Shown in pieces: positions 1,224-36,531 of a DNA stretch of 48,431 nt (positions are counted from its first letter, which is position 1; every line of letters begins with the position of its first letter). Made by a program: the position numbers and the translations under genes. The DNA lies in contig JALAGF010003322.1 in the NCBI GenBank assembly GCA_030167865.1, positions 1-48,431 on the forward strand, in the 5' to 3' direction. The DNA comes from Craspedostauros australis (taxonomy: Eukaryota). The notes beneath the pieces are model-generated. The model saw only the letters and a list, made by a program, of their open reading frames with translations. It made no database searches and was not told the origin of the DNA.

Positions 1224-3241
1224 GGTGTTGCTTTTGATTTTAATTGTTGTTGGTCTTGTTGTTTGCTTGATTGCAGTTGTTTGGAATTGGCTTTTATGAG
1301 AAGAAGGAGGAGGAAGTGGAGGTGGTCGAGAAGGAAGTCGGCGTAGAGGAAGTGGAGCACATGTCTCTACTCGCAGCGTGTCTTGGGATCCTCGACACAA
1401 AGTCGATCGAAATGACATGAGTTGATGTGAGTTGAGCTGGGTCGGCCTGGGTGGAGTTCTCATGTCGTAGGATACTCCTCAGGAATTGCTTCCATTGACG
1501 AACAAAAACGACGCCATTCGCAACGAACGTAGTGGAGCAACCGATGAGAACAAAAATGAACAAATTAGAGAGAATCCACGCTTACAAATTCAAGGATTGT
1601 GCAGACGTGTTGCGCGTGAATCGTGTTGCCGCATGGGTGACATCAGCGCACAAATGATACCGCGATGGCGCAACCTGCTGATGAGTGCCAATCGGATACG
1701 CCGACGTTGCTGGAAAGAGTTCTCGTATGCCTGCATGCATGATGCACACATGCATTCGTCGGAGCACGAGGAAAGGAGAGATTTGGATTCTTCTTCTCCT
1801 CCGGAGCGAAGTGACAAACTAAGATCTGGCATGCGAGAGCAATGAGGAAGAGCGTGACGTTTTGAAGTTTGACAAGAATGGTCTGAACTCACAAACAGAC
1901 AAGACTAGTAGACATACATATCTTCAAACAGACATGCGGCTACCAAAATGGAAACATACACATCTCGACATAGAATGAAACGAGAGTAGAATTGGAATGA
2001 GGACGCACACAGAAACGCACACAACAGACCCAGATCTCCGTCGCACCAATGCATTGATGAGGCATTCTGGAGAGAACTACGCTGGTGACAACTCTTGACA
2101 CGCCAGTATCTTGCAATCGCGACCGCATTGCTTTCGAAGGCCTTGATGCCACCGTGCACCATTGGCGTTTATTCGGATAGAGTTGTTCCACACTATTTTG
2201 CATCAGAAAACGAATGTCGACATCTGCACATGATGCGGCCATCCATCTGCCAGTATGATACAAGCTGCCATCTTCTAAAACGAGCTTTGCCAAAGCGTAG
2301 TCTTTGTGAGTAATTAGATGTGGAGTAGAAAGTTACCAGCTCGTGGGCACATGACGATGTGGCGATTTGCCACGCCACATCAGCTCGTAGTCCCAACCCG
2401 GACTCGCCCCAAGTCGATACCAATGGTCTCAAGAGATGATACCTGGCCCGAACTCGCCAGCTTTGCGCTTCCTCCACCTTGTTGCATTCCAACCTGGGGC
2501 ATGCCCCGAAGTGAATAGCATGCCACTGGCTGGGTGGGACGTTGAACAGCACATGCTCGTTCTCGTGCAGATATTGGGTGATCGAGAAGCAGAAGCACAG
2601 CGGTGTCACCTTGCCAACTCCCACGTTGTCCTCAATATTCGTGCACACTTTCTGCTTACCAATAGTAGCAACGCGAGTGCAGTCGTCCCATGGTCGGGCG
2701 GCGACATGAATTGTGAGATCGGTGTGAACTAACCTGGAGACGCGCGATGAGTTGTGTCGCCAGCCACAAGGGTGAATTGAAGTTGCGAAGAAGGGACTCG
2801 CGAATCCCGCTGCATGAAGCAAGGCTCTCACGGTGGGGAAAAGGCATGGAATTGAAGGGAAACTTAAGAATAGGCAGAGGGCACAAGGCCTTACATCGAT
2901 CGTGGTCTCTACTCTGCTGCGCAAGATGCAGCTGGAAGCGCGCCGTGTAACGTCTAAATAATCTCTATTAACGCTTGTGTCTCCTTGAAACAAGGCTGTC
3001 CCTCTTGTTGACTTGTTGCGAGACAAACGGAAGAGCAACGCGGACACAGAAATGGTGACGCAAACCTCTCTGTGTGCTGAACGACACGAAGCGTGCCGTG
3101 ATGGGCAGAACTTCACGCCAAAGATCATACTTGACGTCTCCCACCAACGACCAAGGAGGAAGCAATCGAACTTCTCCAAAACGTTGGCATCGTGCACCCC
3201 ACCACACTTGCAGTTGCAATGCAGGTGACGCAGAACTGGCA

Positions 3242-6200
3242 ATGGCACATTCAAATGAGGTGATCGACCTTCTGAGTGATGACGACAGCAGCAATGATGA
3301 CAACAATGATGGATGCGGCAATGACACAGTCGTAGAGAAGACGAGGAGTGCGACGGCTTTGGATGCTCCATCAGCGAGGCAAACGAAACGAAAGAAGCCC
3401 CGCATTCCCAAGGCAACGCAACCCTCACTACCGCCTGCGCCGGTGTCGCGTGCAAAACAGAGATGCGCCATCCCAAATCCTTACAAGAAACGGAAGCTCG
3501 CACCAAGCACAACACCAAAGCCATCTTCATTGTCGTTGTTGAACAAATCTTCCAAACCTGCGCGAGGAGCAAAATCAGCCTCCTCGTCATCCAAACCAAC
3601 CGAGCGCCTCGTCAATCAAAAGAAGAAGGGACTGCAAGGTGGAATAGTACTGCAGGAAGAGGTGGCGGATTGTACGAAAGATGATGCGCATTTTGCGACG
3701 TCTCCATCTGCCGTCCAAGTCTTCGTTGCGGAACAAGAGAAACGGAAGAAGGAGAATTTGATGCCGATGCTGTTCCATGACCCCGATTTCACAGCCACGC
3801 CGTCCTCCATCGATGGCATGCACAAGCAGGCAGGCGCTGGGAACCAAGCCAATCCCAAATGCCGATGCTCCAAACCATCCAAGCTGCATTACATCACGCG
3901 CGGACCAAACAAGGACAAGCCGTGCTACAAGTGCCCACAAAACAAATGCCGCTTCTTCCGATGGGCGTTTCGATCCGAAATGATGCATTGGTACCGATTC
4001 GGTCCGCATTCCAATCATCAGCTCGTGGTTCCCACGGGCTTCAGCGCCCAAGATCTGGTGCAAGGCAAGGTCGGCGATTGTTGGTTCCTTTCCGCGTTGG
4101 CCGTCATCGCGGAACGTCACGACTTGATTCTCAATTTGTTCCAAACCGACAAAGGCCTCGGCATCAATCACGAGCTTGGAGTGGTGCGCGTCAACCTTTT
4201 TGTAGATGGATACTGGAAGTCGATCGTCATGGACAACTTTCTGCCCTGCCTCATCGATGAGAAGGGCGAAGGCGAGCTGCAGAAGGCCATCCAAGCGAGC
4301 TTGACGAGCAGTTCGAAATCCACCGCACAATCGATCAAGCAGACACGCAGCACGATGACTCACAGGAAAGCCGGAGCCGATGCGAAAGGAAGACCGTCGC
4401 AGATATCATCTTCATCATCGAAGTTCGACCCATTTGCCATGTCCGATGACAATCGCAAGATCCTGATGGAGACGAAGGAATTTCTCGATTTCGATCGGGG
4501 AACGAAACGAATAAATGCATCATCATCGAGCAAGTCGTTATTTCCAAAATCATTGAATCGCGTGATCACATCCGGCGACCTTGCCTACTCCAAGGCGAAG
4601 CAACATCAGCTGTGGGTTCCATTCTTGGAGAAGGCCTACGCAAAGATCCATGGATCGTACCACGCCATTTCAGGTGGCCATATTGCCGAGGCGTTCCTCG
4701 ACCTCACGGGGGCTCCGACGATTCAGTCGCACCTCCTCAACGAACCGAACTTCTGCCCACGATCGTTCTGGAGTCAGCTGATGCACTGGCGCGAACAGGG
4801 GCTGCCGATGGGATGCGGAACGAACGGTTCTGCCGGAGGCATAGTTGGCATGCATGCGTACAGCATTCTGGACGTCAGAGAGGTGCGCAACGTCAAATGG
4901 GAATTCTTCCAACACCAGTTGCTGGAAGGAAGCCTGGGCAACGTGAGCGGCTTCACGGAGTTCGACGGCACGGTGCGCTTGCTTCGGATCCGCAACCCGC
5001 ACGGGCGCGGCGAATGGCAAGGCGATTTCTCAGATCGCAGCCAAATGTGGCATAAGCTGATTGCCAACTCGCGCGGTAATTTGGATGGTCTGGAGCGAAC
5101 AATGCAGAACGATGGAACGTTCTGGATGGACTACGACAAATTCCTCATGGGATTTAGCAACGTCGATGTCGTCCTCGCGTTCCGCGGTAACCATGCCAGG
5201 AGCTTTGGCTCCAATTTTCCTCCCAAGAAATCCAATCGACGATGCAGCCGCGCTTTCGAGGTGCGGCTGCTGGATCCGCAGCCCGGCGTTCCCAACCACG
5301 ATACAGTCGAGCTGTACGTCATGGGCATCCAAAAGAGCAGAAGAGGCGCGTCGCACGGTCGAACGGATCGCAAGAAGTCGTACAAGGTATGCGATATGGG
5401 GGTGCTGGTCGGCTTCCATTCTGCGTCATCGCCATCGCCATTATCATCAGACCATTCCAAGATTGACGATCCGTCCGCAACCTCGGAGGAAGACTTTCAA
5501 TTTGAAAGAGTGGAAGGAGAGATGTTTGGATTCCGTCGCAATGGCCACCACAGATTGGTGCTGCGACGGTCCGAATGTGATCGGTTGGTCGTCATGCCAA
5601 TTTCCTTCGGACACCCAGCGGCCACCGATAAGGAGCTTTCCTTCGTTGTCCGATTTGTTTCCGATGCGCCTGTCCTCATTCGAGAATTGCCGCAGGTTCC
5701 GCCAATCCATTACGTCATCAAGCAGTATCTGTTGCAGGCGAGCCTTCATTCTCCGTTTCCGTCACGGCCCAAGCAACAGACACTGATGGAAAGCAACGAT
5801 GCGATGTACCGAGTTACCGTGACGAATTGCTTGAAGAATCGAGGCGGGGTAGTCTTTATTTATTTGCTTGTCAATGATTCGAACAGGGCGCCCCAGCCCA
5901 ATAAGTCGAAGCAACAACGACGGAAGCGCCAACCTCATCGAGTTTCGACAATGGCAGATCTCGGACGTGCTCACAACAACAACCATAACAACACCAGCGA
6001 AGAAGGAGATCAAGATAATGACGGTGACGACGGCGTCTCCTTCTCCATCGAATTGACTTGTCGCGGCATGTCTTGCCGAACGCGCGATGGGCCACTCGCA
6101 CATGAGACCGTTGCGAAGGGCGTAAAGTTCCAAGCCTCATGGAGGCGGTTCCAATGCGATTTCCAGCATGAGGCGAAGTCGAGGCTGCTCCTGGTGCTGT

Positions 6201-6916
6201 ACCAATCCGGGCAGGATACCGAGATGGGCCACATCACGTGCGTTCCCAGCCGCACCTGCGGCTCAGGCAACAATCAAACAAGGCATCCACAACAACAAGT
6301 GCTAAAACAACAAAAGTTGGGCGCAGCCACCACGACACTATCAAGATGGCAGAAAGGAGACACCGGTTACAGCGACAGCGATGGAAAGCCTGGTTGGGAT
6401 TACGAAAATGCCGGCATCTTCCATCCCGTCAACATGACTGCGTCCGAATGGTGGAACGGAAACTCAACGAATCGTTCACAACGAAAGACTCTCTCGCAGG
6501 AACTCGCGACCATCAATCGAGGAATGCAAACCGACGAAGGCGATGATGATGTCGAACTGCAGATGGCGCTGGCGCTGTCACGCAACGAATCATCGTGCAA
6601 CAGCCCGGTTGCTCGAATGCCGTTGCTGGATGATGATCTTGTGCTGCAGCAGGCCATCGAGAATTCCAAGAACGAAGCTGATCATGCTGTGACGATCGAG
6701 GAAGATGATCTGGCGAAAGCCATCCGACTTTCGTTGCAAGCTGGTAGCAGCAAGCAGATATCTTCGAAGGAGGTAAGGGACACGGACGATGTCGAGCTGG
6801 TGGATGCGACATCGACAACGGAGACAAGGAAGAAACCGGCGAGCGAAAATCGCAACCGACGCAAGTTGGCAGCCGAAGCTGCGATGAAACGCGCAAAACG
6901 ATTCGCCCGAAGATGA
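3242..6916 (+). CDS. Calpain-family cysteine protease with GRF zinc finger, 3 UIMs, SIM and C-terminal VIM
   Basis: Catalytic triad motifs QGKVGDCWFLS (Cys 4079), HAYSILD (His 4853), RIRNPHG (Asn 4994), plus LEKAYAKIHGSY and DGTFWM. GRF finger CRC..GPNKDKPCYKCPQNKCRFFRW. UIM-like DDVELQMALALS, DDLVLQQAIENS, EDDLAKAIRLSL. ATG start 3242 chosen. Confidence 0.9.
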   Translation: MAHSNEVIDLLSDDDSSNDDNNDGCGNDTVVEKTRSATALDAPSARQTKRKKPRIPKATQPSLPPAPVSRAKQRCAIPNPYKKRKLAPSTTPKPSSLSLLNKSSKPARGAKSASSSSKPTERLVNQKKKGLQGGIVLQEEVADCTKDDAHFATSPSAVQVFVAEQEKRKKENLMPMLFHDPDFTATPSSIDGMHKQAGAGNQANPKCRCSKPSKLHYITRGPNKDKPCYKCPQNKCRFFRWAFRSEMMHWYRFGPHSNHQLVVPTGFSAQDLVQGKVGDCWFLSALAVIAERHDLILNLFQTDKGLGINHELGVVRVNLFVDGYWKSIVMDNFLPCLIDEKGEGELQKAIQASLTSSSKSTAQSIKQTRSTMTHRKAGADAKGRPSQISSSSSKFDPFAMSDDNRKILMETKEFLDFDRGTKRINASSSSKSLFPKSLNRVITSGDLAYSKAKQHQLWVPFLEKAYAKIHGSYHAISGGHIAEAFLDLTGAPTIQSHLLNEPNFCPRSFWSQLMHWREQGLPMGCGTNGSAGGIVGMHAYSILDVREVRNVKWEFFQHQLLEGSLGNVSGFTEFDGTVRLLRIRNPHGRGEWQGDFSDRSQMWHKLIANSRGNLDGLERTMQNDGTFWMDYDKFLMGFSNVDVVLAFRGNHARSFGSNFPPKKSNRRCSRAFEVRLLDPQPGVPNHDTVELYVMGIQKSRRGASHGRTDRKKSYKVCDMGVLVGFHSASSPSPLSSDHSKIDDPSATSEEDFQFERVEGEMFGFRRNGHHRLVLRRSECDRLVVMPISFGHPAATDKELSFVVRFVSDAPVLIRELPQVPPIHYVIKQYLLQASLHSPFPSRPKQQTLMESNDAMYRVTVTNCLKNRGGVVFIYLLVNDSNRAPQPNKSKQQRRKRQPHRVSTMADLGRAHNNNHNNTSEEGDQDNDGDDGVSFSIELTCRGMSCRTRDGPLAHETVAKGVKFQASWRRFQCDFQHEAKSRLLLVLYQSGQDTEMGHITCVPSRTCGSGNNQTRHPQQQVLKQQKLGAATTTLSRWQKGDTGYSDSDGKPGWDYENAGIFHPVNMTASEWWNGNSTNRSQRKTLSQELATINRGMQTDEGDDDVELQMALALSRNESSCNSPVARMPLLDDDLVLQQAIENSKNEADHAVTIEEDDLAKAIRLSLQAGSSKQISSKEVRDTDDVELVDATSTTETRKKPASENRNRRKLAAEAAMKRAKRFARR

Positions 6917-7061: not shown

Positions 7062-8265
7062 TCAGAAGTTGTCCTTGGCCTTTCGCACCTTACCGAAGGC
7101 CTGCTCCTCGGTGTCACCATCCACAACACCGACGTTGGAACGAATCTCAGCACTGGTGTCACATCGCAAGAATGGGTTGGCCTTCTTTTCATCGACGAGC
7201 AAGCTCGGCACCGTTGGCTTTCCATTTGCTCGCAAGTCCTTGTACTTGGCAACCTGTGCCTGCAGGTCTGGATTGTTGGGTTCGACGCTCATGGCGAACT
7301 TGGCATTGGACTCGGTGTATTCGTGGGCGCTGATGGAATCAATGACAAAGGGCAAAATAATCGTGAAGTGGAAGTGAAGGGTAGGGACAATGAAACGAAA
7401 GATGAGAGATGAAAAAGCAGCACGTATCACGAAATAGAATATAATGGTATCAGGTTGATCCGCGGGTAGCACCAATCCCAGGATGCAAATAGAAACGTCG
7501 ACACGACCATCCCAATGGACGCATAACGCACCAATACACCTTCGTCTCGTCGGGCAGATCGCGCAACCGCTTGAGACTGCCCCAGAACTGATCCGGTGTG
7601 CCTTCGAACATGCGGCCGCATCCCAGAACGAAGAGGGCGTCACCAACGAAGGCGCTGTCTTCGGTATCAAAGTAGAACGCCACATGGCCCTTCGTGTGAC
7701 CACCCACATCAATGACGGACGCCGTCTTGCCACCGAACTCCACGGTGTCGCCCTGTCCGACCGAGACGTCGATGCCGGGGATGCGTGTCTTCTCGTTGAC
7801 GGGCCCGACGATGGTGACGTCCTTCGATTTGAGGGCCAGGTTGCCGCCCGTGTGATCACCGTGATGGTGAGTGTTGAGGATGTGCGTGAGCTGCCATCCT
7901 CGCTTGTCCAATTCCGATTTGTAGGTCTTGGCGCAGGGCGTGTCGACGGCCGCCGTTTGCTTCGTGATGGGATCGTGCACCAAGTAGCCGTAGTTGTCAT
8001 TCAAGCAGGGGAACTGCGCCACGACGAACGGCGTTGTGGATGTTTCGCCGGACATGTTGCTGCTTGTGCCTGTGCTTGTGTTTTTGGCAGTGCTTGTGTC
8101 TGTGGAAGTGGAGAAATGAAGATGCGGAGCCGCGCAGGTTCGGTGGGAAGTTGGGACGAACGCGTTGCAGTACGAAGAGGTCGACGTCAGCGTGAGGAAG
8201 GAGAGCGCTGCTGTGGTGGTGGAACGGAAGAGGCGCTTGCTGCTCCTCTGCATCGCAATGTTCAT
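7062..8265 (-). CDS. GLO2: Hydroxyacylglutathione hydrolase (glyoxalase II), probably plastid-targeted; 2 exons (8265-7532, 7329-7062)
   Basis: DNYGYLVHD, THHHGDHTGGN, GHTKGH, GDALFVLGCGR, then VYC|AHEYT..EKKANPFLR. The GT-AG intron 7531-7330 restores the frame (333 aa). Presequence YCNA-FVP. Confidence 0.93.
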
Positions 8266-8719
8266 GGCTCTGCAAATGGATACACGCACGAACTGTTGGG
8301 AGGATCGTGGATTATGGGATGGTGTCAGCACAACGTCGAAAGCGAATGCGGTTGCTCCGACCAAATCCGAGTCTTCATGACATCTCTGTGTATGTGGATT
8401 GACGCAGATCTTCCTGCCTTGTCGATGCATCCCACGATGGCAGGAGAAAGAATGATGACGAGGCTTCGATGATCCTGTTTGTCTTTCTGTGCTGCGTTTT
8501 TGCCTGTGCAGTTTTGGAGGCAAGATCGTGGCCATTCTCGAATCACGAGGTCCATTGACAACGAAAGAGACCTCGTGAATCAAAACAACTCTCTACATTA
8601 CGAACAATAGCCTGCTCGTTACGTTCCACTGCACCATTGCGACTGCACATCTTCGCTGACTCTGCTCTATTCGCCCACGCATAACCCACAGAATGGTCAG
8701 CTGACGGTATGTTAACCAG

Positions 8720-25992: not shown

Positions 25993-27099
25993 GGTGTCCG
26001 AGCTTGACGTGTTGTTACGAGTGCTTGCGGGTGCCTATGCGCACGAGTACGAATGTGTAATTGTATGGGGTGACCGAATGAGGGTGGCTGTTTGTTTGTG
26101 AGGTGCGCTTTTGCGATGTGTGGATTTGCTGCTTGTCTCGTTGAATGATCTTCAGATATGATTTTGTGAGAATGAGGTGTCCTCCCATGTCTCAAATCCA
26201 TCGACAGGACGAGAAAGCGACCGTTGGAATGGCGACCGCTATTACAATTACTATCCAGCGAAACCAACGCTACAAGACCGCTACTCTTACGGTCACCATC
26301 ATGGTGGTGCCTGGTGCACTCCTCAAGATCATGTCGCCGAAGGTTTGGGTGCTGTGGCCGAAAATAGTTTGTGAGATGCCCAAATTTTGTGTCGCGTCTG
26401 TTGGGATGGTGGAATGTGACGTTGGCGTGGCCGATCTTCGCTTGTGTTGGTCGACCGTTGAAATCGAAATCGATGATATCCACGACTAAGAATTCGAGGC
26501 ACCAATCGTGGGAAACTAACATCAACAGAACCGATCCTTCTCGTTTTGCGTCGCGGAAACATCAACTTTGGATGATGGGCGCTCTCTGCCAGAAATGTTC
26601 AGAGTGCGGCAGCGGAGGCGGTGGTGACAGTGATGGGGTTGAGATCCAAACGAGTCGGTCAGATGCTCTGCAGATGATGCCTTTCTTTGAGATCAGTAGC
26701 AACCAGTTCTGAAGCGGCGAAAGACCATTATGGTCGGGCTCTTTTCCTTTTCTATAGGTGAGAAATGTTAATGTTCTGCCCTGCCTTGGAAGTACTTCAG
26801 AGTTTGGAAGTCTCAATGTTCTACGCTATTCCACTCAACCACGCTCGCGTACCGGCACGAGGATGAGAATGGCTATTTCTTTTGCTGACGACGGATGATG
26901 CGTACGTTGGTTCCATCTCTCCAATGTGGACAGAGCCAGCGTCGACTTGCGTTCATTCAACCATCATCGACTTCGAAGACACAGCCGTCGTGCAGCAATC
27001 ATCTCGTCACTCATCGACTCACTTTGCCACGTTCATGCAAACACCATGCTCACATGAACATCCCCGCTCTCGGTACTCGTACATATTTCATATTATGCA

Positions 27100-28029
27100 A
27101 TGTTACAATACCAAACGCGAAAAGAAGAACAAGCCCAAACCATCACCCGCGACCAGATCCTCGCGGCTGTGCAACAGGGCGACACGCAAACTGTGCAACG
27201 ATGGATGAGCCAAGTCACGAAACGAGCATCGCACCAATCGCATGCCAAGCGAAGGATGCGAATCGATCCCATCAACGCGGCAGTCTATGATGGCAAATCG
27301 TTGCTGCACCACGCTTGCGGTAGCGGTCATGTGGAGATCATCGACTGCGTTGTCTCATCGAACGCAGCAAACATAGAAGTGACTGATAACAAATGTCATA
27401 CCCCGTTGGGATACGCATGCCTCCATGGCCATTTGGAAGCTGTGAAGTACCTCATGATGCGCACTGACGCGAACATCAATCGACGTGGCGGTGACGGTTC
27501 CACGCCTTTGGATCTGGCGTGCTTCGCTGGGAAGACAGACGTTGTGAAGTTCCTGATGGGCTGTGGGAAGGTCGACATGAGCGTGTTCGCTCAGAGGAGA
27601 GATACGCCATTGCATCAAGCCTGTTTGGGAGGTGATTTGGGAACGGTGCAGTGGTTGATTACGCAGGATGGTGTCGACATCAATGTTCGAGACGATGATA
27701 ATTTCACGCCATTCCAGTACGCGTGTCAGGAGAATCATGTGGATGTGGTCAAACATCTCCTCTGCGTTGGCAGCGTGGACGTGAACATGCGTGACGATGA
27801 TGGCGAATCTGTGCTGCATGACGCATGTCGTCACGGGTACATCGAGCTCGTGCGGTGTCTGCTCAAAGCTGATGGTATTGATGTCAACCTACGGAACGTC
27901 GAGGGCAAGACCCCGATCAGTATTGCACGCCAAAACGAAAACGTGGAGATCATTGGCTACCTCCTTGCATCTGGCAGAGTCCAGAATCTCAAGACAGCGA
28001 CACGGAACACCACAGAAGCGTGGCGGTGA
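27100..28029 (+). CDS. Ankyrin repeat protein (about 7 repeats)
   Basis: Repeated TPLHxAC..G...V.xL units of about 34 aa (GKSLLHHAC, HTPLGYAC, STPLDLAC, DTPLHQAC, FTPFQYAC, ESVLHDAC, KTPISIAR). Confidence 0.9.
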   Translation: MLQYQTRKEEQAQTITRDQILAAVQQGDTQTVQRWMSQVTKRASHQSHAKRRMRIDPINAAVYDGKSLLHHACGSGHVEIIDCVVSSNAANIEVTDNKCHTPLGYACLHGHLEAVKYLMMRTDANINRRGGDGSTPLDLACFAGKTDVVKFLMGCGKVDMSVFAQRRDTPLHQACLGGDLGTVQWLITQDGVDINVRDDDNFTPFQYACQENHVDVVKHLLCVGSVDVNMRDDDGESVLHDACRHGYIELVRCLLKADGIDVNLRNVEGKTPISIARQNENVEIIGYLLASGRVQNLKTATRNTTEAWR

Positions 28030-28262: not shown

Positions 28263-28838
28263 CTAAGTTCTGAGTGTATCACCGCCACCTCTGTTGCCGT
28301 CGAGACCGTCAACCTTCGTTTTCATCTCCCGAACGCACAGCTTGCACTGCAACTCCACCCCAAGCATCTTATCCCGACCTTCCTTGGTGGTGACCCATGG
28401 GCGTTCGGTCATTGGCGGATCGTGCCGCACATGCTGAGAGTGACCGCATCGCAACTTGGCGACCCAATGCTGTTCTTCATCCTGGAAGTAGCCCACGATG
28501 GGTTGTAGCTTGGCTATTTCGTTAGATGATACTGCCCCATCGGACGACGACGACGACGATGATAGCCACGAGGAAAGAAATCGCCGTCGTTGCGGCTTGC
28601 TTTTCGCACCATCATTCTCTCTGTTGAGCTTGTCGGTATTGTTCTTGTCTTGCATTGCCCGAAAGGTGCTGTACTGATAGCCCACCATGCGTGCGCAGGA
28701 CGCCGTGCCATGGGACCAGCACGAAGACGGGACCCTCGCCAATGCAGATGGGAGGATACCTGTCACTCTTGAGCTCGCCATCAACGCTGTGATGGCCAAC
28801 ATCGCAATCAGACGGAACTTTGAATGGACACAAGTCAT
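28263..28838 (-). CDS. DUF3565-like small Cys/His domain protein with N-terminal targeting sequence
   Basis: C-terminal IVGYFQDEEQHWVAKLRCGHSQHVRHDPPMTERPWVTTKEGRDKMLGVELQCKLC matches the bacterial DUF3565 pattern as I recall it; hydrophobic N-terminus LIAMLAITALMAS. Confidence 0.75.
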   Translation of the reverse strand: MTCVHSKFRLIAMLAITALMASSRVTGILPSALARVPSSCWSHGTASCARMVGYQYSTFRAMQDKNNTDKLNRENDGAKSKPQRRRFLSSWLSSSSSSSDGAVSSNEIAKLQPIVGYFQDEEQHWVAKLRCGHSQHVRHDPPMTERPWVTTKEGRDKMLGVELQCKLCVREMKTKVDGLDGNRGGGDTLRT

Positions 28839-29121
28839 CGCTTTGGTTGCAGGCTCTGTTGGTTCCTTTCGCAGACTTGATGTGAGTTTTGGAAATGTAT
28901 GGTGAAAATGGAAAGCTGTTGTGGTCGTTCCTCTTGTTGTTGTTGTTGCGTTTCTCGTGCAAATGGGAGTGTGAGTCCCCGTCAACGTCGTCGTTGCGCT
29001 TGAAGGTTGCGGATCTGGTGCGGCTGCGGGTTCTTTCTCTCCTTTCTTCCTCTCTCTGTGTGAAGCCTTTGTGACACAAATGTTCCTCCACTCTCAGTGA
29101 TGACAAAGGCAGAGTTCTCTT

Positions 29122-29398: not shown

Positions 29399-30817
29399 AT
29401 GCCCACCAGTGACAACCCCGACAAAACTCCGTTCCACGACACAGAGGAACTCTTCCGTCGCCTCAACTGGACATGGCTCACTGACTTTTCCAAGCATTCC
29501 AAAATCACCTCTGATGGTGAATTTGCTGACTTCCTCGATACCTCTGACGAGGAGTTCGAGGCTGTCTTGGACGGCTGGAAGTCTGGCTCCATCACTCGTT
29601 GTTTCGAGCTCCGCAATCTTCGCGCATACGCGGAAGCGAACCCTGATTTCGACGCATGGTTCACCACACTGGAACGCCCTGTACTCCGCGCATTCGGCAA
29701 GGCCAAAAAGCCTCCCGCTGTTCGCGACAAGTCTTCCCCTGAAGCCCGTGGTGCCTCTGGTACCCTTGTATCTGGCGGTACCACCGACAATGCCCGTCCC
29801 TCCGAACATGGTGATGCCTCTACACCCCGCGGTGACACGCCCATTGCAACCGCAGGCTGTGGTGTTGGCACCAGTGATGCTCCTCTTGATGTTGGTGAAG
29901 AACCAGCGCCTGCCGTCGACTTCATCATTGGCTCTGGCCTTACCTGCGCTGTGGCACGCAACAACCCTGCCACTCTCCCTCATTTTCACTTCGAAGAGGT
30001 TCCCATGGCCATGGAGCCCTCGTATGCCGCCATTGGCTACTGGCAGCGCTGGGAACTGAAGCTTGCTGGGGACGCGCCCGCTGGAGTACTCAAGTGGTAC
30101 ACACAGCTCCAAGCCGAGGCTGCTGGTGTGGACATCCACATCTGTCCGCTTTCCGCGTTCAGTCTGCAGTGCTCCATCATTCCGCGCAACACTTCACGCG
30201 AGCGTGTCATCCGCGCTGGCAAGTGGCTGAACAAGAAATTGCAACAGAAGGACATCCTCGATCTGGACGACCCTGCCATCTCCCTATTCTATTCTGGGAC
30301 TTTTGGCATGTCGCCACACCATTTGTCATCCTTCCTTTTCCTTCATCAAGTGCTCTCCGACACGTACATGCGTGTTGCCAACGCCGTGAGTCAAGCACCT
30401 GAGTATGGCAATTTGCAAGACGTCATCAAGTTCGCCACGGCATTATTAGAGTTCCAACAGACCGAGAGCGTTGTTCACCGTCGCACGATCACTGATGTGG
30501 AGCTCTCCCGCCGATTCCTCGAAGGTCTTCGTTCTCACCACATGCCTGTGGAGCACCACATCACGTCTCTGTCCCTGGTGCCAGGCAACAAGCGCGTACC
30601 TCCTCACCTACACGTGTCGGCTCTTGCCCGTACCATCAGAGGCGATCCCACTGCCTCTACGTCCAATGCTGGCCACCATGCGGGCACGGTTGCCAGGGCT
30701 GTTGCACTTGTCCATCAAGGACGTGACTTGGCAAGCAATGACAGCGACAGTGACGGCGATGACGAGCGTACAGCGCAGATCCTTTTCCAGGATTTTCTTC
30801 TCGCCGGCCGGAAGTAG
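29399..30817 (+). CDS. gag: Retrotransposon Gag-like ORF1
   Basis: 472-aa ORF located between the PBS and pol; assigned by position, no CCHC knuckle seen. Confidence 0.75.
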   Translation: MPTSDNPDKTPFHDTEELFRRLNWTWLTDFSKHSKITSDGEFADFLDTSDEEFEAVLDGWKSGSITRCFELRNLRAYAEANPDFDAWFTTLERPVLRAFGKAKKPPAVRDKSSPEARGASGTLVSGGTTDNARPSEHGDASTPRGDTPIATAGCGVGTSDAPLDVGEEPAPAVDFIIGSGLTCAVARNNPATLPHFHFEEVPMAMEPSYAAIGYWQRWELKLAGDAPAGVLKWYTQLQAEAAGVDIHICPLSAFSLQCSIIPRNTSRERVIRAGKWLNKKLQQKDILDLDDPAISLFYSGTFGMSPHHLSSFLFLHQVLSDTYMRVANAVSQAPEYGNLQDVIKFATALLEFQQTESVVHRRTITDVELSRRFLEGLRSHHMPVEHHITSLSLVPGNKRVPPHLHVSALARTIRGDPTASTSNAGHHAGTVARAVALVHQGRDLASNDSDSDGDDERTAQILFQDFLLAGRK

Positions 30818-30840
30818 AGCAGCTCTCCGGTGAACGGCTA
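30790..30840 (+). promoter_or_regulatory. Putative -1 programmed ribosomal frameshift signal (G GAT TTT + hairpin)
   Basis: Heptamer GGATTTT at 30790-30796 lies in the gag/pol overlap (pol frame open from 30763), followed by a 6-nt spacer and the inverted repeat GCCG-GCCGG..AGAG-CAG-CTCT-CCGGT..CGGC. Confidence 0.7.
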
Positions 30841-33800
30841 CTGCCCGTTGCTCGCCCATGCGGGATGCAAAAAGGCACGCCCACCAGCGTTGCATCACCG
30901 CTACAAACTGCCTCAACCCAAGTGCAGCACACGGATCCGGATTGTTTCATAACGTCCACGACGGTCCCGCTCCGTGCAAATGCGCTTGCAGGGTCTCGCG
31001 AAGGCGAATGGCGCCGCCGAATCCATGGTCAGTGTGATCTCGGTGCCAACGTCTGTGCGACTCCTCATGCGCGTCTCCTCTGTGACTATACCGCATTTAC
31101 TACTCCTTCCAGCCTCGAAGCAGCGGAATCGTCTTCGCCTGCTATGGAGTGCCCAGGAGAAGGATACATGCGGCTATCCTGCGGCGACGGCGCGCATCTT
31201 TCGGTGCACACTCTTCTGTGCCCACGACTGGCTGACACGCTTGTGTCGCCACAGTCCATCATCGGACAACATGACAACCCTTACACCAGCTTCGGCGTTG
31301 AATCCACCCAGCGCAATGCTCACATCGTCTTCAAGTCTCCGGCTAACAACCTTCGAGTGCCGCTGTACATTCGCAACGGTCTGTACTTCTTCGGAGGCGT
31401 CCATCCACATGCCATGACCTTGAGGCAGGCCTCGCCTACGCTCCTGTCGGAACTTTGGCATCTACGACTTGGACATGTGGGCATGGCACAGCTGCAGAAG
31501 CTTTCCAAGTGCTCCACCGGTATTCCAGCATCTGTTACGCGACACATTCACCCACTTCGACACTGTGACACGTGCAGCAAGGCAGGATCTCAACATGCCA
31601 AGATTCCGGCGACAGCGTGTGTAGTACCACTTCCGTTGGGAGACATTCTCGATCATTCGCATGTTCATGCTTCTGCTGCAAGGTGCACAGAGACTGGTCA
31701 AGTCGATATTGTGCATGTTGACACAACCGACGAGCTGTTTGGGTATCTATTCAGCCAGAGTGTGGACGTGCGTGGTATGGACGGCTTCCTTGGATTTGAG
31801 TTGCGGTGCGATAAGCAACGGCATTGGATTCAGCTTCAGCAGTGCAAGTCAGGCCAACCAGCTGCACGTATCACGCGATGGCGGTCCAGGCTGCACAAGA
31901 CGCACCTCATTTCGATTCAAGGCCAACAGGTGCATACAGTCATGGACGCGTGGCAAGCCATACAGACCCTGCATGATCAGCGTGTTTCCACTGCGGAGTT
32001 TGTGTTCACATTCGATGACGTTCGCAACAGCCTATCTCAACACGGGGTCCCGCAGATGTACTTCGATCAGATGAAGCATGTTGGAGATATCATCGAAACG
32101 TCCGCTCCCAAGGCGCATGCCACCAGTGTCACCAATGCACCCGTCAAACTCACTCGACAAGTGCTTCTACAGCAAGATGACTGGGAGCAGTGGCAGGCCG
32201 CAGAATTCAAGCAGCTGGACCAATACGATGCACAACAAATGTTTGGCGATCCTGTTCCAGCTCCCGCAGACGCCGCCATCTTCAATTGGGTCTGGGTCTA
32301 TGTGGTCAAGACACATGAGAATAATTGGAAGAAGGCACGTGCTGTTTGCGATGGCTCTACCAGAGGAGGACATGCTCGGATATTCGGACACACCTATGCG
32401 GCTACGCCTGATTTAACGGAGTTCAGGATTCTCCTTGGCATTGCTGCAATCCAACAGCTCAAGGTGTACAGCTCGGATGTCATGAACGCTTTTGCGGAAG
32501 CCCCAACTGGCGAACAACGATACTTCATGAAAGTGGGTGAGCCGTATCAAGCATGGTGGCAGCAGAAACATGGCACCACTATTCCTCGCGGCCATGTCAT
32601 CCCGGTCAACAAGAAACTTCAAGGTCATCCTGAAGCGCCTCGCCTCTGGAGCAAGCACATCACTGGCATCCTACAACAAATCGGGTTCACTTCGACAACC
32701 CATGCTCCTTGTTTGTACACTGGGGCCATTGGTCACAACAAGATCTACGTCCTACGTCAAGTGGATGACTTTGCAGTCGCTGCTCCATCACAGAGTGTCT
32801 TCGATACATTCTGCGACGTGCTCGACAAGCGCCTCTTCCAGCCCATCACTCGACAAGGACTCATGGTGCACTATAATGGACTCAGTGTTGATCAAGCTCA
32901 GCGATTCGTGCGCATCCATTGCACATCTTACGTGGACAAGATGCTGGAGCGCAACAAGTGGCAGAACATGCGGCACACTCGCAGATTGCCTATGCTGTCG
33001 GACAACTCGTATGTCAAGACTTTGGACAATGCTGACGTTCCAAACGATGACAAGGAGCAAGCCGCTCTGGCCACAAGGTTCAAGTTTGGGTACTGCCAAG
33101 CCATCGGAGAGCTCATATGGGCTATGATATCATGCCGTCCTGACATTTCTTTTCCCGTTGTCAAACTCTCTCAATTCTCAAACAATCCAGGTGAAGCTCA
33201 CTTCGAAGCTGTCAAGTTCCTCATGCGGTATGTCGCGAGCACCAGAGACTATGGCATAACCTACTGGCGACAAACGTCACTCGTCGATCTTCCCGATGTG
33301 CCGGCCCCATCCAAGCTGTCACCACCTGGCGATTCTACGCACAACATCCATACCACGCGCCAGCTCGAGGCTTCTACGATATATGGGTACGTCGACGCCG
33401 ATTGGGGTGTTGATATACGTCACCGCCGGTCCATGTCAGGCATCGTCCTGATGTTTGCAGGTGGTGCCATCGCATGGAAGGCCAGGGTTCAGCCCACGGT
33501 CTCCATGAGCAGCACAGAGGCGGAATTTGTTGCAGCCAGTGATGCCGGCAAGATGGCTCTTTGGCTGCGATCGATTCTCCATGAAGTTGGCGTGACACAA
33601 CCGTTCGCAACCCCCATCTTCGAGGATAATCGCGGTGCCCGGCTGATGGCCAGTGCCAGTCAGCCCACTCGGAACTCAAGACACATAGCCATCCGAGAAT
33701 TCGCGGTCCTCGATTGGGTCGAGACAGACCTTGTCGCCTATCCAGAGGTCTCCTCAGAGATGAATGCATCTGATATCTGCACGAAACAGACACCCGTGGT

Positions 33801-33882
33801 CCTGTTCTTTTGGCACGTTGACCTAGTTATGGGTCGCAACGTGCCCTCATATGTAAACGACTACAGGAGTCCGGATTTGTAA
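30796..33882 (+). CDS. pol: Copia Pol: protease, integrase HHCC finger only, PDZ-like insert, reverse transcriptase, RNase H
   Basis: Protease CDLGANV; LWHLRLGH..CDTC; RT KARAVCDGS, DVMNAF, LQGHPEAPRLW, LRQVDDF; RNase H YVDADWG, SSTEAEF, IFEDN, NASDICTK. First in-frame ATG at 30865. Confidence 0.93.
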   Translation, partial: SSRRPEVEQLSGERLLPVARPCGMQKGTPTSVASPLQTASTQVQHTDPDCFITSTTVPLRANALAGSREGEWRRRIHGQCDLGANVCATPHARLLCDYTAFTTPSSLEAAESSSPAMECPGEGYMRLSCGDGAHLSVHTLLCPRLADTLVSPQSIIGQHDNPYTSFGVESTQRNAHIVFKSPANNLRVPLYIRNGLYFFGGVHPHAMTLRQASPTLLSELWHLRLGHVGMAQLQKLSKCSTGIPASVTRHIHPLRHCDTCSKAGSQHAKIPATACVVPLPLGDILDHSHVHASAARCTETGQVDIVHVDTTDELFGYLFSQSVDVRGMDGFLGFELRCDKQRHWIQLQQCKSGQPAARITRWRSRLHKTHLISIQGQQVHTVMDAWQAIQTLHDQRVSTAEFVFTFDDVRNSLSQHGVPQMYFDQMKHVGDIIETSAPKAHATSVTNAPVKLTRQVLLQQDDWEQWQAAEFKQLDQYDAQQMFGDPVPAPADAAIFNWVWVYVVKTHENNWKKARAVCDGSTRGGHARIFGHTYAATPDLTEFRILLGIAAIQQLKVYSSDVMNAFAEAPTGEQRYFMKVGEPYQAWWQQKHGTTIPRGHVIPVNKKLQGHPEAPRLWSKHITGILQQIGFTSTTHAPCLYTGAIGHNKIYVLRQVDDFAVAAPSQSVFDTFCDVLDKRLFQPITRQGLMVHYNGLSVDQAQRFVRIHCTSYVDKMLERNKWQNMRHTRRLPMLSDNSYVKTLDNADVPNDDKEQAALATRFKFGYCQAIGELIWAMISCRPDISFPVVKLSQFSNNPGEAHFEAVKFLMRYVASTRDYGITYWRQTSLVDLPDVPAPSKLSPPGDSTHNIHTTRQLEASTIYGYVDADWGVDIRHRRSMSGIVLMFAGGAIAWKARVQPTVSMSSTEAEFVAASDAGKMALWLRSILHEVGVTQPFATPIFEDNRGARLMASASQPTRNSRHIAIREFAVLDWVETDLVAYPEVSSEMNASDICTKQTPVVLFFWHVDLVMGRNVPSYVNDYRSPDL

Positions 33883-35337: not shown

Positions 35338-36531
35338 GAGAGACTACAGCACTCATAGTGTCCTCATTGTTTTTTGGCATTGCGACAACTTCAGGCACAC
35401 AGATACATCAGATGGCGGTGTCGTCACGGTGCTACCAGCACGAGTACAAAATTTGCCGAAAGAGATGTGCAAGTCCTTAACTTTTGGAATGGCACTACGA
35501 TCAAGCATTGCATCGTAGAAATGGTGCACCCCCTAATCTGATTTCAATGTTACTCTCTGGTGCATCTATTATATAATATGACGATATCTGCAGTGATTTC
35601 CCTCTGATACTTGGCTTCTAGACGAGACGACTCTGCAGTCAAATTGGCTCTGCGGCCGTTTCAAGTTTTATTTTGACTACGTGGTCGAGCCACGTAGAGT
35701 TTGACTGTATAGTTGAGCATACCCTCATTACGGATCTGCGAGAGTATGTCTCCTCAGCTCTTCCATCAGATCGTATCTCATGGTCACAAGAGAAGAAGAT
35801 GAACGCAATTTTGGAGACGTATTCTTGCTCGCACCGGTCACCCGGATATTCACCAACACCCATCTCATGTTAGTCTGTCCTTGCTTCGGACAAGACTTGA
35901 ATCAGTCGAGTCAAGGGACGGAAAACTTCGTGCCGTCCTGTTGGCGCGGCATGTGCGCAATTTTGAATTGTTTGTTTTGGCGCGATGCCAAACGCAACGA
36001 GCGCAAAAAAAGAAAACTCCACAAAAAGCAGAGAGAAACGAAGAGCAAAAAGGAAGCGCGCAACGCGGATGCACACGCTCATCTCCATCCACGAGATCGA
36101 GGACTTGTGCGTTCCGACTTGTGACCTTGGCAACTGTTCCAGACAGCATTCCTGCGTTGTCGCATCAAAGTCAGCGACGCAGTCATTGATTTCATCGCAT
36201 TGGCACTTCAGCTGGATCAGCGAGAGCAGGAGCACAAAGTACATATAGTACAAGTACTCACAGGAGCATCTCGATCAGTGTTCTGCCGAGAAGAGAGGCT
36301 CCAACTTGGCAGACAACGGGCATTGAGCAAACACAGAACAAACGGCAGCAGCTCCAACAACGAGCATCGACGAGCATCAACGAGCAACACAGAACAGTCA
36401 ATACTGCACGGCCAAGAAGGGAACAGGCCAAGTGCCATAGGAGCAGCAACAGCAACAGCAGTGAAGGCAACAGAGTCGGAAACACGCTTGCAGACGAACG
36501 AAGCTGCCTTCGTAGAGCGACAGTCAGCAAA

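Follow-up and report, generated by a model that had tools for sequence, protein, structure and literature searches.

Calpains that join a GRF zinc finger to the calpain protease core (Zf_GRF-CysPc) form a published clade of SAR, Hacrobia and Plantae (Zhao et al., 2012; PMC3563603; this and the other papers cited below are drawn on for the available portions of their text). A UBA-zfGRF-calpain has been drawn for Ostreococcus and Micromonas (Rawlings, 2015; PMC4631099), and a 2026 review assigns the Zf_GRF-CysPc layout to the calpains of Plasmodium (PMC13413365). In their available portions, the first two papers describe the domain combination, with UBA added in chlorophytes, and give no function; nor do these portions mention a SUMO-interacting motif (SIM), a ubiquitin-interacting motif (UIM), a VCP-interacting or VCP-binding motif (VIM or VBM), a UIM in a core insert or the insertion topology of the ribbon. 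The term UIM has no occurrence in the available text of the three papers, and Cdc48 has none in that of the review. Here, we describe a gene of this family on a contig of Craspedostauros australis (JALAGF010003322.1), analysed over its whole length of 48,431 nucleotides (the window). Its product, the window protein, is a calpain that carries a GRF ribbon, a SIM, UIMs and a VIM, and we are inclined to read it as a tag-directed protease: a ubiquitin- and SUMO-directed, Cdc48-coupled and probably nuclear calpain.

CAPN15, the only calpain shown to read ubiquitin, is directed by its NZF fingers and cuts a membrane protein, ubiquitylated E-cadherin (December 2025; PMC12805371). Like the window protein it is a non-classical calpain, with ubiquitin-binding modules that direct it to ubiquitylated substrates. 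CAPN15 has N-terminal NZF fingers, whereas the window protein has UIMs, and the available text on CAPN15 shows no GRF, SIM or VIM. No RanBP2/NZF finger, which would mark a CAPN15/SOL calpain, was found in the Pfam scan of the window protein, and the SOL-homology domain of CAPN15 finds a counterpart in the C-terminal domains of the window protein only as an Atlas lead to CalpD_C (0.90).

Outside the calpains, comparable described systems are Wss1, which combines a WLM protease with SH/VIM and a SIM, and SPRTN, which combines a protease with a Zn-binding DNA subdomain beside the active site, a p97 motif and a UBZ (PMC9240642). By analogy, the window protein may share their logic of a protease joined to DNA binding, SUMO or ubiquitin binding and a Cdc48/p97 motif, and the Zn-binding subdomain beside the active site of SPRTN has a parallel in the GRF ribbon in the calpain core. 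The likeness is one of analogy and not of membership: Wss1 and SPRTN are zinc metalloproteases with HExxH, whereas the window protein is a Cys/His/Asn calpain of unrelated fold, and no WLM or SprT domain matched it in Pfam at E values up to 1. To our knowledge, the Cdc48/p97-linked, tag-directed proteases of chromatin are of the metallo-, aspartyl- or serine-type. UIMs are joined to a p97-binding motif (VBM or VIM) in the cysteine protease ataxin-3 and in the zinc-finger adaptor ZFAND2B/AIRAPL. The catalytic domain of ataxin-3 is a Josephin deubiquitinase, ZFAND2B/AIRAPL has no catalytic domain and neither contains a GRF finger.

A complete calpain gene with an intact catalytic triad

An uninterrupted open frame spans positions 3101..6916 of the forward strand, and its ATG at 3242 opens the coding sequence of 1224 residues (Table 1). 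The aligned orthologues start with M-x(2-8)-[E/D]-V-I-[D/E]-L-L-S, which corresponds to residues 1–12 of the window protein, so that this ATG is taken as the right start. Since one frame holds all of the conserved blocks, no intron need be assumed. The closest relatives among the matches listed are diatom proteins with 40–47% identity (Nitzschia, Cyclotella, Thalassiosira, Seminavis and Pseudo-nitzschia). Long antisense open reading frames (ORFs) over the gene (for example 2196–3611 on the minus strand) have no Pfam match and were put down to chance, the sequence being eukaryotic and GC-rich.

Pfam recognizes Peptidase_C2 (PF00648) in two stretches (E = 9.3e-58; 196 bits against a cutoff of 23.8), and calpain cores in the PDB match the protein with E values of 1.9e-27 to 1e-20. 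Alignment to calpain-3 and calpain-1 places the triad at Cys280, His538 and Asn585, nearly invariant across 80 aligned sequences; an earlier reading of the window from its letters alone (the sequence-only reading) had proposed an intact calpain triad, and this is confirmed. An AlphaFold2 model of residues 120–1075, built on an alignment of 80 sequences with 30–59% identity to the window protein, reached a mean predicted local distance difference test score (pLDDT) of 82.8 and a predicted template-modelling score (pTM) of 0.84. Foldseek aligned this model with the cores of calpain-3 and calpain-1 (E = 1e-20 to 1e-21; TM score 0.80–0.87 depending on the target) and, over about 730 columns, with m-calpain (E = 2e-24). 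As modelled, the window protein has the two-subdomain papain-like calpain fold.

The core is broken by the GRF ribbon and by a 108-residue insert that divides sub-domain 1 between ‘FLPC’ and ‘DLAYS’. This insert holds a well conserved UIM, EGELQKAIQASL, which is absent from the list of the sequence-only reading, and a segment, SSSKFDPFAMSD..R..L..T.EFLDFD, modelled as a helix packed against the core with pLDDT above 90. Downstream of the core, a separate model of residues 650–1010 (pLDDT 80.4) comprises two beta-sandwiches. Structure comparison with VIA-align, the rows of which cover model residues 1–168, i.e. the first sandwich, related it to calpain domain III (1qxp_B; Z 10.2, rmsd 4.7, 134 aligned) and to the distal C2-like (C2L) domain of calpain-7 (2qfe_A; Z 9.3, rmsd 3.6, 114 aligned). 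An Atlas feature search with residues 650–1010 returned Calpain_III clusters (0.93), CalpD_C (0.90) and PalB_C (0.89), which are leads only. No MIT domain, which would mark calpain-7 or PalB, was found in the Pfam scan of the window protein.

The Ca2+ ligands of the core were mapped by offset, with what we take to be the numbering of the catalytic residues of rat calpain-2. At the first site Gly266 and Asp271 are kept and the residue equivalent to Glu175 is Gln456 (HQLW); at the second, Glu591, Asp598 and Gln622 are kept and the equivalent of Glu323 is Thr626 (NDGTFW). Both the Gln of HQLW and the Thr of NDGTFW are the family consensus. The ligands in the core of rat calpain-2 are Ile89, Gly91, Asp96 and Glu175 for one site and Glu292, Asp299, Gln319 and Glu323 for the other (Rawlings, 2015; PMC4631099). 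From its sequence, the window protein is probably an active, non-classical calpain of the Zf_GRF-CysPc family.

A GRF ribbon built into the protease core

The ribbon lies inside the N-terminal segment of the core, between FxDxxF..S and WxR, and is not a simple N-terminal appendage. Calpains without the ribbon (P0113, P0115 and P0118) read FxDxxFP....SL, then 15–25 residues, then WxRP; in GRF-calpains the ribbon stands in place of that loop (LFHDPDF..PSSIDG, ribbon, HWYRFGPH in the window protein). The position of its ribbon, together with its homology to named members, places the window protein in the Zf_GRF-CysPc calpains.

Motifs were counted in 120 matches, with no rows dropped: 79 close orthologues (P0002–80, many of them fragments), 30 distant GRF-calpains (P0081–111 without P0102) and 11 other calpains. 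A GRF pattern was recognized in 45 of the 79 close orthologues (42 of the 51 with a complete N-terminus), in all 30 distant GRF-calpains and in none of the 11 other calpains. Among 15 diatom-type ribbons, that of the window included, the four ligand cysteines (C7, C9, C31 and C36) and the F..WA element with F39 are invariant. In the PDB, a profile of these 15 ribbons matched the GRF of NEIL3 (7omk_A, E = 6.5e-16; 7jl5_A, E = 1.6e-15) and the Zf-GRF of APE2 (5u6z_A, E = 1.2e-7); these were the only significant matches, the next standing at E = 0.19. On this profile-level homology we accept the window ribbon as a divergent GRF finger, as the sequence-only reading had it.

GRF fingers bind single-stranded DNA (ssDNA). 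The carriers of the best matching ribbons, NEIL3 and APE2, are a glycosylase and a nuclease, not proteases. NEIL3 combines an NZF finger with tandem GRF fingers, and it has been described as pairing GRF with recruitment by ubiquitylation.

Conserved SUMO- and ubiquitin-interacting motifs in unconserved tails

In a per-position identity profile of 49 sequences, the motifs stand out as islands within tails of near-zero identity, and the linkers around them are unconserved at 40–50% overall identity. At the N-terminus, EVIDLLSDDDSSNDD fits the definition of a SIM: a hydrophobic core, [VIL][VIL]x[VIL], with an acidic/Ser run next to it, in a disordered stretch. This N-terminal SIM is present in 42 of the 51 N-complete close orthologues, and a SIM-type motif in either tail was counted in 60/79 close orthologues, 17/30 distant GRF-calpains and 3/11 other calpains. 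It lies near the C-terminus in P0068, P0070, P0079, P0103, Cymbomonas, Mesostigma and dinoflagellates. Because it shifts between the tails, the SIM behaves as a linear motif rather than as a structural element. The basic clusters KRKKPR and KKRK of the sequence-only reading are present as well: KRKKPR is unconserved, and KKRK falls within PYKKRKL, which is moderately conserved. A conserved short motif of the otherwise unconserved N-terminal linker, GLQGGIVLQEEV, has the family consensus LQAGLVLEEDI; the model shows this motif as a beta-strand, docked on the fold, with a pLDDT of about 77. It is SIM-like in its hydrophobic triplet and acidic run, does not fit the published SHP consensus and may be a second SIM-like element or a docking strand.

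For the UIMs, Pfam scores two stretches of the window protein at 24.9 bits against a cutoff of 21, and the pattern acidic-Phi-x-x-A-x-x-x-S gives four accepted matches, at residues 346, 1106, 1135 and 1157. A fifth match at residue 149 is not conserved and was judged spurious. The last three are the UIMs that the sequence-only reading had seen in the C-terminal tail, DDDVELQMALALSRNE, DDDLVLQQAIENSKNE and EEDDLAKAIRLSLQA; the first, EGELQKAIQASLTS, is that of the core insert. At least two tail UIMs are found in 69/79 close orthologues, 18/30 distant GRF-calpains and 1/11 other calpains, and the core-insert UIM in 49 of the 61 close orthologues whose sequence includes this part of the core. Judged by these motifs, the window calpain is quite probably directed by ubiquitin; that it also reads SUMO is favoured, with less assurance.

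Short motifs in low-complexity tails can be compositional accidents without function, and we assessed this explanation with 20,000 composition-preserving shuffles of the window protein alone. Three UIMs in a 149-residue tail were reached in 3/20,000 shuffles, a SIM in the first 60 residues in 304/20,000, a VIM in the last 40 residues in 799/20,000 and an insert UIM in 927/20,000. The VIM and the insert UIM are thus not rare singly, which speaks for accident; since a motif taken by itself is only weakly improbable, the argument is carried by conservation and not by the single sequence. The motifs form conserved islands in linkers that are otherwise unconserved, they are retained, fixed in place or moving between the tails, across diatoms, dinoflagellates, Amoebophrya and green algae, and they are rare in the 11 other calpains. 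Nor are the orthologues near-identical, at 30–59% identity to the window protein. We therefore regard compositional accident as very improbable.

A putative Cdc48-binding motif at the C-terminus and its modelled complex

The motif near the C-terminus, RRKLAAEAAMKRA, is an exact RX5AAX2R, as stated in the sequence-only reading. The published VIM consensus is Rx2h3AAx2Rh, with RRx5AAx2Rh in gp78; that of the VBM is EhRRRRLxhh, with RRhRLxRF in RHBDL4. Both are basic helices, and their binding site on p97 is the cleft that separates the two lobes of its N-domain. The strict form RX5AAX2R was found within the last 35 residues of 42/79 close orthologues, 2/30 distant GRF-calpains and 0/11 other calpains, and elsewhere the strict pattern has only five matches in 124,629 residues. 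The extended form [RK]Rx5AAx2Rh is present in 40/79 close orthologues, and the family tail consensus, E-K-R-R-L-A-A-E-A-A-x-K-R-[FLM], fits the published VIM; the window tail itself ends in ..KRA, not in ..KR[FLM]. A further scan, run tail by tail against the whole of Pfam at E values up to 10, took in that of the window and 37 of the 44 tails that bear a VIM. Seventeen of these 38 tails match SVIP, the family of the small VCP/p97-interacting protein, at best with E = 2.4e-4, and no second Pfam family is matched by more than one of them. Other C-termini, ELRAARLARF(G) or EARL[KR]RFD, take the place of the diatom VIM in P0096, P0097, P0099, P0100, P0091, P0130 and P0131. In sequence, these C-termini, of the green lineage and of some dinoflagellates, resemble the VBM, which uses the same cleft of Cdc48.

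We then modelled the last 45 residues of the window protein with residues 1–200 of a Cdc48 from a marine metagenome, alignments not being used. This stand-in was found by searching metagenome contigs with a degenerate pattern of a short motif and choosing full-length ORFs; it clusters with a haptophyte-labelled member annotated as ‘transitional endoplasmic reticulum ATPase’. The modelled complex scored 0.87, compared with 0.01 for the best of three controls. In a set from microbes, 51 of 78 solved complexes came up to this mark, as did 2 of 108 mismatched pairs; in a set from eukaryotes, 39 of 65 solved pairs for which no like complex was older and 2 of 126 unrelated pairs did so. At least 85% of contacts are common to the runs, and the pLDDT of the partner is at least 61. 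On the side of the tail, the interface is formed by residues 24, 27–32, 34–36, 38–39 and 42–43, which fall within residues 1203–1222 of the protein and cover the motif. On the side of Cdc48 it includes F45–T49 and E134–P138, the latter being the EAYRP loop, which has been named as part of the VIM/VBM site on p97. The model, which places the tail in the VIM cleft of the N-domain, supports binding, and coupling of the window calpain to Cdc48 is likely.

SVIP and gp78 have in common with the window protein a C-terminal basic helix of the RRx5AAx2Rh type, and the window tail was modelled in the same N-domain cleft. They are a small adaptor and an E3 ligase, respectively, whereas the VIM of the window is carried by a protease.

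Ubiquitin binders and nucleic-acid fingers in the relatives

Homologues were found in diatoms, dinoflagellates, Amoebophrya, Cymbomonas, Mesostigma, Rhodosorus, Bigelowiella and Ostreococcus, a spread that matches the published clade of SAR, Hacrobia and Plantae. No Plasmodium protein was among the 120 listed of 211 matches in a profile search seeded with alveolate members. Ubiquitin binders other than the UIM occur in some relatives: UBA_4/UBA_8 in prasinophytes, Ostreococcus included, and RanBP/NZF-like fingers with sub-threshold Pfam matches (E = 0.014–0.077). Different ubiquitin binders appear to have been gained independently, so that recognition of ubiquitin would be central to the GRF-calpain family. 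The relatives also carry fingers of nucleic-acid or poly(ADP-ribose) (PAR) type, namely zf-CCHC in dinoflagellates and a PBZ finger (CX5CX6HX5H; zf-CCHH, E = 1e-9 and 2e-9) in P0141 and P0146. The PBZ finger sits between conserved segments of sub-domain 2, as a PAR-binding-type module spliced into the core. A CX5CX6HX5H finger is glossed as ‘DNA strand break repair’ in the domain table of Zhao et al. (2012; PMC3563603). The PBZ finger of these relatives is an independent hint of a link to DNA damage, and PBZ and GRF would both point to damage sites.

Two relatives have further C-terminal or fused domains. The GRF-calpain P0104 has a Bles03 domain at its C-terminus (E = 7e-29). P0021 is annotated as a fusion to glycoside-hydrolase-20 domains (PF14845 and PF00728), with its VIM 570 residues from the end, and is probably a merged gene model of two adjacent genes.

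Databases name some of the relatives ‘Capn15’ or ‘sol’, which agrees with another explanation, that of a ubiquitin-directed calpain at work outside chromatin (in the cytosol, at the ER or at membranes) in the manner of CAPN15. The VIM would then act in Cdc48 pathways, either general ones or those of the ER-associated degradation type, and the role of the GRF ribbon would be a structural one or the binding of RNA. Indeed, the ubiquitin-binding fingers of CAPN15 lead to cleavage of ubiquitylated E-cadherin, and the VIM proteins gp78 and SVIP work at the ER. However, the only significant PDB matches of the ribbon profile are the GRFs of the DNA-repair proteins NEIL3 and APE2, NLS-like (nuclear-localization-signal-like) clusters are present, and no transmembrane or lipidation signal was noticed, no predictor having been run for either. 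We give this explanation only a small share of our belief.

A proposed tag-directed calpain

The layout of the window protein, a core followed by a calpain-III/C2-like beta-sandwich and a second beta-sandwich, with disordered tails that carry short docking motifs, suggests how a tag-directed protease could work. The tandem UIMs, three in the tail and one in a core loop, together with the SIM or SIMs would bind a substrate by its ubiquitin, SUMO or mixed chains. The VIM helix at the C-terminus would dock in the inter-subdomain cleft of the N-domain of Cdc48/p97, so that unfolding and cutting would be coupled. Through the GRF ribbon, set into the N-terminal part of the core, the enzyme may be placed on single-stranded nucleic acid, for which ssDNA at stalled or damaged chromatin is the likeliest candidate. 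Its substrates would be ubiquitylated or SUMOylated proteins stuck on DNA, of which DNA–protein crosslinks (DPCs) are one candidate class. The analysis establishes the integrity of the gene, the triad, the calpain fold and the sequence identities of GRF, UIMs, VIM and SIM with their conservation and, at the level of a model, that the VIM fits the N-domain of Cdc48; the binding events, the nuclear location, the class of substrate and the order of events are inferred. Taken as a whole, the proposal of a ubiquitin/SUMO-directed, Cdc48-coupled and probably nuclear calpain has our cautious preference; for action on nucleic-acid-bound proteins in the nucleus, considered by itself, the chances fall a little short of even.

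Several results weigh against this proposal. In Pfam, the GRF of the window (PF06839) has an E value of 6e-4 and 20.2 bits, under the curated cutoff of 25.9, and the eponymous G-R-F residues are replaced by DKPCY; the GRF of the orthologue P0028 scores 27.0 bits, and those of distant relatives score 37–52 bits. GRF fingers could, moreover, bind RNA. The strict VIM is absent from 37 of the 79 close orthologues, many of which are fragments or have other termini. The tail of the window protein itself matched nothing in all of Pfam at E values up to 10, SVIP included, and a VIM-tail profile had no match in the PDB, in a library without peptide chains under 20 residues. The complex was built with the Cdc48 of another organism and without alignments; as a like complex, that of the p97 N-domain with the gp78 VIM, is solved (3TIW), its pass may reflect memory and shows likeness only. 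PIP box, APIM and SHP box patterns were searched for in the window protein and none was found. Each core Ca2+ site has one acidic ligand replaced in the offset mapping, which leaves the mode of switching on undecided. Finally, the known substrate of CAPN15 is a membrane protein and does not belong to chromatin.

The sequence-only reading had gone further and likened the protein to Wss1 and SPRTN. The analogy is fair, because the SIM, GRF ribbon, UIMs and VIM on an intact calpain are real and conserved, nearly all of them as islands across about 110 relatives, and pass every in silico test that was run. From it follows the rival proposal of a dedicated DPC protease, a cysteine-protease analogue of Wss1/SPRTN that would be triggered by ssDNA at the GRF ribbon and recruited by SUMO or ubiquitin and by Cdc48. 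The kit equals those of Wss1 and SPRTN, the ribbon profile matches the GRFs of repair enzymes and the ribbon is built into the core, and the PBZ finger of the relatives is a motif tied to DNA strand-break repair (PMC3563603). Yet PIP, APIM and SHP motifs were not found in the window protein, our literature search yielded no link of any calpain to DPC repair, and the sole studied possible relative points elsewhere. The calpain of Plasmodium falciparum is essential and nucleolar and is linked to pre-S-phase development, not to repair; it has catalytic domains, a domain III and an unannotated conserved N-terminal motif common to nucleic-acid-binding proteins (PMC2746569). It differs from the window protein in being myristoylated and palmitoylated and in its very long N-terminus, and its membership in the family rests on the 2026 review (PMC13413365). 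A dedicated role in DPC repair is unlikely. As for novelty, the sequence-only reading had suspected a possible undescribed protease of DPC repair or chromatin quality control. The GRF-calpain layout has been published and CAPN15 is an experimental precedent for a ubiquitin-directed calpain, which qualifies this view; the kit of SIM, UIM and VIM on a calpain had no description in the literature searched, subscription-only papers and supplements lying outside its coverage.

A bolder generalization concerns the family. Binding modules sit in loops of the core: GRF in the N-terminal segment, UIM in sub-domain 1 and, in some relatives, PBZ in sub-domain 2. Since each Ca2+ site seems, in the offset mapping, to lack one acidic ligand, ssDNA, ubiquitin or PAR, and not Ca2+, may align the two halves of the core. 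The enzyme would then be switched on at the lesion, and Cdc48 docked on the VIM would feed it unfolded substrate. On this view the GRF-calpains of algae and protists would be a third class of chromatin-clearing (DPC-type) proteases, made up of cysteine proteases and gated by ligands, which we regard as speculative and quite improbable.

If the tag-directed calpain proposed here is right, ‘ubiquitin-directed calpain’ would extend from one animal enzyme to an ancient principle, and diatoms, dinoflagellates and green algae would gain a candidate for the proteolysis of chromatin or DPCs. The family is a broadly conserved one of algae and protists with ubiquitin, SUMO, Cdc48 and ssDNA-type modules, and PAR-type fingers in some members, and it offers a natural test of whether ligands other than calcium can switch calpain cores. 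If the Plasmodium calpain is a member, this may explain the nuclear location of an essential parasite enzyme.

Features of the gene and its genomic setting

Table 1. Features of the GRF-calpain gene of Craspedostauros australis, in positions of the window.
Feature	Position	Strand	Basis
Complete intronless coding sequence, 1224 residues and stop	3242..6916	+	ORF, orthologue N-termini
SIM, EVIDLL and acidic/Ser run (residues 6–20), EVIDLLSDDDSSNDD	3257..3301	+	Orthologue alignment, counts
Basic cluster KRKKPR, NLS-like, unconserved	3386..3403	+	Sequence only
Basic cluster PYKKRKL, NLS-like, moderately conserved	3479..3499	+	Sequence, identity profile
Conserved short motif GLQGGIVLQEEV (residues 130–141)	3629..3664	+	Alignment; family consensus LQAGLVLEEDI
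Calpain protease core (CysPc), broken by GRF ribbon and 108-residue insert	3770..5188	+	Pfam, PDB, Foldseek
GRF-type zinc ribbon CxC...C...CxFFxWA (residues 207–242)	3860..3967	+	Pfam, ribbon profile, alignment
Catalytic Cys280 codon, context GDCWF	4079..4081	+	Alignment to calpain-3 and calpain-1
108-residue insert in protease sub-domain 1 (residues 337–444)	4250..4573	+	Split Pfam/PDB domain match
UIM within core insert (EGELQKAIQASLTS)	4268..4309	+	49/61 close orthologues; helix in model
Conserved insert segment SSSKFDPFAMSD..R..L..T.EFLDFD	4406..4495	+	Identity profile; model helix
Catalytic His538 codon, context GMHAYS	4853..4855	+	Alignment to calpain-3 and calpain-1
Catalytic Asn585 codon, context RNPHG	4994..4996	+	Alignment to calpain-3 and calpain-1
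First beta-sandwich, calpain domain III/C2-like (residues 650–817)	5189..5692	+	Structure comparison
Second conserved beta-sandwich with disordered loop (residues about 840–1005)	5759..6256	+	Model secondary structure, pLDDT
UIM 1 (DDDVELQMALALSRNE)	6542..6589	+	Pfam, pattern
UIM 2 (DDDLVLQQAIENSKNE)	6629..6676	+	Pfam, pattern
UIM 3 (EEDDLAKAIRLSLQA), best Pfam UIM stretch	6698..6742	+	Pfam, pattern
VCP/Cdc48-interacting motif RRKLAAEAAMKRA (residues 1206–1218), RRx5AAx2Rh type	6857..6895	+	Pattern, conservation, SVIP, model

The neighbouring genes encode an alcohol dehydrogenase, a metallo-beta-lactamase fold, Trs85, GT92, ankyrin repeats, a copia-type element, DDRGK, an SNF2 helicase with zf-CW and a cyclase. 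They are ordinary eukaryotic genes and carry no information on the function of the calpain. The metallo-beta-lactamase-fold gene (glyoxalase-II-like; 7065–8592, minus strand) lies in two frames, 7453–8592 and 7065–8000, and this split suggests an intron around 7450–8000. On the same strand, an ORF at 28266–29093 with a strong DUF3565 match (E = 3e-30) adjoins the ankyrin-repeat gene (27058–28026). The copia-type element, a retrotransposon remnant or copy, is a long ORF with gag-pre-integrase and RVT_2 reverse-transcriptase domains at 30763–33879 on the plus strand. Finally, an open frame of 1397 residues (36190–40380, plus strand), with strong positive AT skew and no Pfam match at E = 0.001, lies directly upstream of the SNF2 helicase with its zf-CW finger (40485–45119).

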